NCBI RefSeq assembly: GCF_003018255.1
Contig: NZ_CP027440.1
Reading direction: 5' to 3' (one strand)
From: Escherichia coli
Lineage (GTDB): Bacteria; Pseudomonadota; Gammaproteobacteria; Enterobacterales; Enterobacteriaceae
Length of the DNA: 64,000 nucleotides
The notes beneath the pieces were generated by a model. It was not told where the DNA came from, made no database searches, and saw nothing but the letters and a program-made list of their open reading frames with translations. Positions 37,526 to 38,320 of the stretch are shown here, one piece after another; position 1 is the first letter of the stretch; the number at the start of each line of letters is the position of its first letter. Both the position numbers and the translations under genes were made by a program.

Positions 37526-38320
37526 GTGGCAATGCTGGTTGCCGCAGGACAGTTTGCTGTTACATCTGTGTGGGAAAAGAACGCTGAGATTTGTGCCTCG
37601 TTGATGGCGCAGGCGGCGGAAAACGAGGTTTCGCTGTTTGTCCTGCCGGAAGCATTACTGGCGCGTGATGATCATGATGCGGATCTTTCGGTTAAATCAG
37701 CACAGCTGCTGGAAGGCGAATTCCTCGACCGTTTACGGCGAGAAAGTAAACGTAACATGATGACGACAATTCTGACGATTCATGTTCCTTCAACACCGGG
37801 GCGCGCGTGGAATATGCTGGTGGCGCTACAGGCAGGAAACATCGTCGCCCGTTATGCCAAACTGCATCTCTATGATGCATTTGCCATTCAGGAATCACGC
37901 CATGTTGATGCTGGTAATGAAATAGCTCCGTTACTGGAGGTGGAAGGGATGAAGGTCGGTCTGATGACCTGTTATGACTTACGCTTTCCAGAGCTGGCGC
38001 TGGCACAGGCATTACAGGGAGCTGAAATCCTGGTACTTCCTGCCGCCTGGGTTCGTGGGCCGCTCAAAGAGCATCACTGGTCAACGTTGCTTGCCGCTCG
38101 TGTGCTGGATACCACCTGTTATATGGTGGCGGCGGGGGAGTGCGGGAACAAAAATATCGGGCAAAGCCGGATTATAGATCCCTTTGGCGTCACCATTGCG
38201 GCAGCGTCAGAAATGCCTGCACTCATTATGGCGGAAGTGACGCCCGAACGTGTGCGTCAGGTACGCGCGCAACTGCCCGTCTTAAACAACCGTCGCTTTG
38301 CGCTGCCGCAATTATTATGA
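37526..38320 (+). CDS. ybeM: Nitrilase-superfamily C-N hydrolase (amidase), apparently intact
   Basis: 264-aa uninterrupted ORF with candidate Glu-Lys-Cys triad (LPEAL, AKLHLYD, TCYDLRF). Confidence 0.85.

Follow-up and report, generated by a model that had tools for sequence, protein, structure and literature searches.

Nit1-type amidases and the ybeM locus

Deaminated glutathione (dGSH), N-(4-oxoglutaryl)-L-cysteinylglycine, arises from glutathione when a transaminase acts on its glutamyl amino group. A passage of PMC9913352, citing Peracchi et al. 2017 PNAS, describes Nit1 as a metabolite-repair enzyme that hydrolyses this compound, and the legend of one figure in a metagenomics paper equates YbeM with NIT1, the dGSH amidase, and YafV with NIT2, the omega-amidase. 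In the papers covered by whole-word searches for ybeM, the gene has peripheral mentions only, and none of them speaks of the E. coli protein having been assayed. The E. coli protein was reportedly assayed by Peracchi and colleagues in 2017, work that is said to be the basis of the name used by UniProt and NCBI.

The ybeM locus considered here lies in a 64,000-nucleotide stretch of Escherichia coli contig NZ_CP027440.1 (assembly GCF_003018255.1), hereafter the window. Its open reading frame (ORF) is very probably an intact, functional E. coli ybeM allele, predicted from its sequence to encode a cytoplasmic CN_hydrolase amidase for deaminated glutathione that corresponds in bacteria to Nit1. Public databases already record the gene along with its family, assigned substrate and pseudogene status in K-12, and the importance of the locus beyond correct annotation is slight; mildly useful are the exact position of the K-12 lesion (one G in codon 67) and the spread of that lesion as a natural allele.

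Open reading frame and translation start

An uninterrupted plus-strand ORF spans window positions 37526..38320, amounting in the ORF listing to 264 amino acids counted from a GTG codon, with the motifs LPEAL, AKLHLYD and TCYDLRF following one another in that order. The features at its 5′ end, and the coding sequence as it is best delimited, are:

37521..37526, + strand: Shine-Dalgarno motif AGGAGG, 5 nt upstream of the ATG at 37532, found by sequence inspection
37526..37531, + strand: in-frame GTG-GCA extension yielding the 264-aa longest ORF, probably untranslated
37532..38320, + strand: ybeM coding sequence, predicted deaminated glutathione amidase (Nit1-type CN_hydrolase), 262 codons and stop; drawn from the ORF, RefSeq WP_001561629.1, PF00795 and NF033621

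The first base of the GTG at 37526 is also the final G of the Shine-Dalgarno motif (37521-37526), and a start at this codon, with its 264-aa product, was dropped on account of the overlap. Strain JNE23-011, which shows 100% DNA identity across window positions 37400-38450 and has an identical ybeM gene, carries a RefSeq CDS (WP_001561629.1; 789 bp including the stop) that begins at the same ATG; the NF033621 match starts at residue 5 in 264-aa numbering, on profile position 2. Both the overlap of the GTG with AGGAGG and the RefSeq annotation point to ATG 37532 as the almost certain start, and the protein is most likely 262 aa long. The sequence-only reading of this DNA had described an uninterrupted, intact 264-aa ybeM at 37526-38320: the open frame and its intactness were confirmed, the length was probably overstated by two residues. 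Residue numbers below follow the 262-aa form, and adding 2 converts them to the 264-aa numbering (Glu40 becomes Glu42).

Family membership and assigned substrate

In a profile search the ybeM protein matched Pfam CN_hydrolase (PF00795) with 138.5 bits against a cut-off of 23.2 (E=3.2e-40), and did so end to end, residues 5-247 aligning with profile positions 2-255 of 256, a full-length match that bears out the earlier placement in the nitrilase superfamily of amidases. The window allele differs from the intact allele of BL21 and H10407 at 19 nucleotides, with dN/dS = 0.13, consistent with purifying selection on ybeM between the two; given this ratio and the end-to-end domain match, the frame is not a chance ORF.

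Among the NCBIfam models, NF033621 (‘deaminated glutathione amidase’) scored 447.8 bits against a curated cut-off of 355, covering residues 5-263 of the 264-aa form on profile positions 2-260 of 260, and all the other models scored far under their cut-offs. These include NF043013, a Yersinia/Proteobacteria-type deaminated glutathione amidase model that shares the name of NF033621 and covers a different lineage (79.5 bits, cut-off 500), and NF007757, the YafV-type amidohydrolase model, of which YbeM is not a member (59.4 bits, cut-off 249). The window protein is exactly WP_001561629.1, named deaminated glutathione amidase by RefSeq and UniRef and found in identical form on 676 contigs in the public protein collection. 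The substrate had earlier been called unknown, a description that does not hold for the databases, where RefSeq, UniRef and the passed NF033621 cut-off already assign deaminated glutathione.

YbeM could instead be mainly an omega-amidase of the Nit2 kind, with 2-oxoglutaramate or 2-oxosuccinamate as its substrate in place of deaminated glutathione, as fold and catalytic triad are common to Nit2 and as the solved structures of mouse Nit2 (2W1V, E=8e-22) and yeast Nit3 (1F89, 3e-19) are matched by its sequence. These are, however, the next matches after two Nit1-type structures that rank best, C. elegans NitFhit, by its Nit domain (1EMS, E=5e-30), and yeast Nit2, the Nit1 orthologue (4H5U, 6e-27); the dGSH amidase model is passed where the YafV-type model is far from it, and the figure legend cited above reserves the omega-amidase role for YafV/Nit2. 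An omega-amidase as the main activity is therefore considered highly improbable, and the dGSH amidase assignment is kept in what follows.

Catalytic residues and proposed reaction

Alignment with the NitFhit structure 1EMS places four candidate active-site residues:

37649..37651, + strand: Glu40 (GAA, in LPEAL), candidate catalytic glutamate, aligned with Glu54 of 1EMS
37859..37861, + strand: Lys110 (AAA, in YAKLHLYD), candidate catalytic lysine, aligned with Lys127 of 1EMS
37892..37894, + strand: Glu121 (GAA, in QES), candidate second active-site glutamate, aligned with Glu143 of 1EMS
37970..37972, + strand: Cys147 (TGT, in TCYDLRFPE), candidate nucleophile, aligned with Cys169 of 1EMS

Glu54, Lys127 and Cys169 are what we take to be the catalytic triad of 1EMS, and a second glutamate is the fourth catalytic residue across the nitrilase superfamily; Glu121 also aligns with the conserved ES of yeast Nit2. 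The two yeast Nit2 entries differ at a single position within the aligned region (C in 4H5U, S in 4HGD), which coincides with Cys147. On these alignments the Glu-Lys-Cys triad picked out by the sequence-only reading is correctly assigned to Glu40, Lys110 and Cys147.

By analogy with the chemistry of the family, Cys147 would attack the amide carbonyl of deaminated glutathione with Glu40 serving as the general base, Lys110 and Glu121 would stabilise the tetrahedral intermediate, and hydrolysis of the resulting thioester acyl-enzyme would release 2-oxoglutarate and cysteinylglycine, an overall reaction that would amount to metabolite repair.

The K-12 lesion and its distribution

K-12 MG1655 ybeM (b4581, NC_000913.3 658031-658818) carries the annotation of a 788-bp pseudogene, in agreement with the sequence-only reading, and its alignment with the window gene contains 21 substitutions and one missing base. 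For placement of the lesion the reference was ETEC H10407, the closest intact allele among those examined: a gap at gene position 200 minimises the differences between K-12 and H10407, to 2 (V33A and V37A), and puts the 1-bp deletion unambiguously in codon 67, where H10407 reads GGACGTTTACGG and K-12 reads GGACTTTACGG.

37730..37732, + strand: codon 67 (CGT), site of the K-12 lesion; the G at 37731 is absent in MG1655 and in every genome with the K-12 allele

Beyond the deletion, frame 0 of K-12 runs into two stops at codons 76-77, and the part of the enzyme that holds Lys110, Glu121 and Cys147 carries on in another frame. The two K-12 replacements, at codons 33 and 37 (window 37628-37642), are both non-synonymous and lie just upstream of Glu40, a pattern that fits relaxed constraint after inactivation, in a tiny sample.

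The crcB-ybeM-tatE locus occurs in all but two of 5426 complete E. coli genomes (5424). The search with this three-gene stretch returned 5436 matching places, 2 of them on plasmids, and some genomes have two such places, as in JNE21-003, where one of the two has 79% coverage. A probe of 80 K-12 bases with the deletion at its centre was matched exactly in 859 of the 5424 genomes (∼16%); in the remaining 4565 the full probe aligned at <99% identity, with an 81-base span among the matches listed, corresponding to the extra base. At the codon-67 site, to which this count refers, the intact base is the majority state, at ∼84% or about five genomes in six. The proposal that this strain retains a functional allele thus stands as regards intactness; as a distinguishing feature of the strain it falls away, with ∼84% of genomes sharing the intact base at the lesion site.

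The exact-match genomes are not confined to laboratory stocks. In an evenly spaced sample of them, eight of ten came from humans, faeces, river water or farms, with sizes of 4.6-5.1 Mb, and natural carriers of the frameshift allele, environmental and clinical, include LD27-1, KMi006 and VG48B2; in LD27-1 the gene is identical to that of K-12 and annotated as ‘frameshifted’. The ybeM frameshift is a lineage polymorphism and not a K-12 laboratory mutation. Its occurrence in ∼16% of genomes indicates that ybeM function is non-essential; K-12 and a sizeable natural lineage have lost the gene through the 1-bp deletion in codon 67, and the enzyme is thus dispensable under many conditions. With the frameshift in K-12 and the intact state in most E. 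coli, metabolic models based on K-12 therefore go without a step of glutathione repair that is apparently available to most of the species.

One further frameshifted match, annotated as ‘nitrilase-related’ in UTME-9 (NZ_CP157110.1), was set aside as a product of poor assembly, all genes of that stretch being frameshifted. In this nominally ‘complete’ assembly every gene from pagP to lipA is annotated in that way, which suggests uncorrected long-read indel errors; assemblies of this kind would inflate pseudogene counts.

Neighbourhood, expression and constraint

The gene lies between crcB and tatE, and the coordinates agree with the placement given in the sequence-only reading:

37056..37439, − strand: crcB (fluoride channel), divergent upstream neighbour, from ORF and annotation
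38449..38652, + strand: tatE, downstream neighbour, 128 bp past the ybeM stop, from ORF and annotation

Further out, cspE and pagP lie upstream of ybeM and lipA downstream, and the order crcB-ybeM-tatE-lipA is common to the window, K-12, BL21(DE3), H10407 and JNE23-011. In a promoter and terminator scan around ybeM the counts did not exceed those for shuffled sequence, and neither a convincing ybeM promoter nor a convincing intrinsic terminator between ybeM and tatE emerged. Between the convergent cspE and crcB genes, a strong stem-loop with T-runs (AAAACCCGC...GCGGGTTTT, window 37022-37055) is probably a shared bidirectional cspE/crcB terminator. Downstream, this strain has a truncated gene for the LysR-type regulator YbeF (window ∼39950-40480, − strand; junction near 39954-39959), ∼403 bp of the 3′ part of BL21(DE3) ybeF (10814-11216 of the BL21(DE3) stretch) being absent from the window. 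RefSeq flags JNE23-011 ybeF as ‘frameshifted; incomplete; missing C-terminus’, and K-12 is the reciprocal of this strain, with ybeF intact and ybeM broken.

NsrR binding near ybeM has been reported in K-12 and CFT073, and in a CFT073 mutant ybeM was down-regulated, to 0.30-fold, under NO; the change in CFT073 transcript under NO means that the gene is transcribed. Salmonella has FliA ChIP peaks upstream of ybeM; a translational reporter there gave very weak expression that did not depend on FliA, and a possible misannotation of the start codon is raised by the authors.

The weak Salmonella reporter, together with a frameshift allele that 859 of the 5424 genomes carry, natural isolates among them, could be taken to mean that ybeM is decaying or silent in E. 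coli and that its intactness in this strain is incidental. Such a state accords poorly with a dN/dS of 0.13 across the 19 nucleotides that separate two intact alleles, with the strong Shine-Dalgarno motif, with the near-universal presence of the locus (5424 of 5426 genomes, 4565 of them with the extra base at the lesion site), and with a CFT073 transcript that shifts under NO stress near a site of NsrR binding; decay or silence of the gene is accordingly judged very unlikely. There is also a slim chance that the frameshift represents adaptive loss rather than neutral decay, or that YbeM has a second role in nitrosative stress, as NsrR binding and down-regulation by NO in CFT073 might hint; in either event, intact and broken ybeM would amount to a genuine metabolic polymorphism in the handling of damaged glutathione.

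Comparison with known systems

A close E. coli counterpart is WP_000959109.1, the protein of BL21(DE3) and H10407 (UniRef representative YBEM_ECO57), which shares with the window protein its locus, its length of 262 aa, its triad and its NF033621 name. The two are identical at 257 of 262 residues (98.1%), the substitutions from window to BL21 being E32D, D66G, H124R, V191A and L258P, none of them catalytic. K-12 ybeM is the same gene at the same locus and, once the missing G is restored, is 21 nucleotides away from the window allele; unlike the window allele, it lacks that G in codon 67 and meets stops at codons 76-77, and relative to H10407 it carries V33A and V37A.

With the eukaryotic Nit1 proteins (NitFhit 1EMS, yeast Nit2 4H5U/4HGD and mammalian Nit1), YbeM shares the CN_hydrolase fold, the aligned Glu-Lys-Cys residues with the second Glu, and the assigned reaction, from dGSH to 2-oxoglutarate and Cys-Gly. 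The relationship is nevertheless distant (E=5e-30), and YbeM is without the Fhit fusion, the N-terminal extension or the insertions of yeast Nit2. The omega-amidase YafV/Nit2 of E. coli (NF007757) belongs to the same superfamily and shares its catalytic mechanism with YbeM, but differs in its assigned substrate, the two being set apart by the 59.4 bits that YbeM scores against the NF007757 cut-off of 249.
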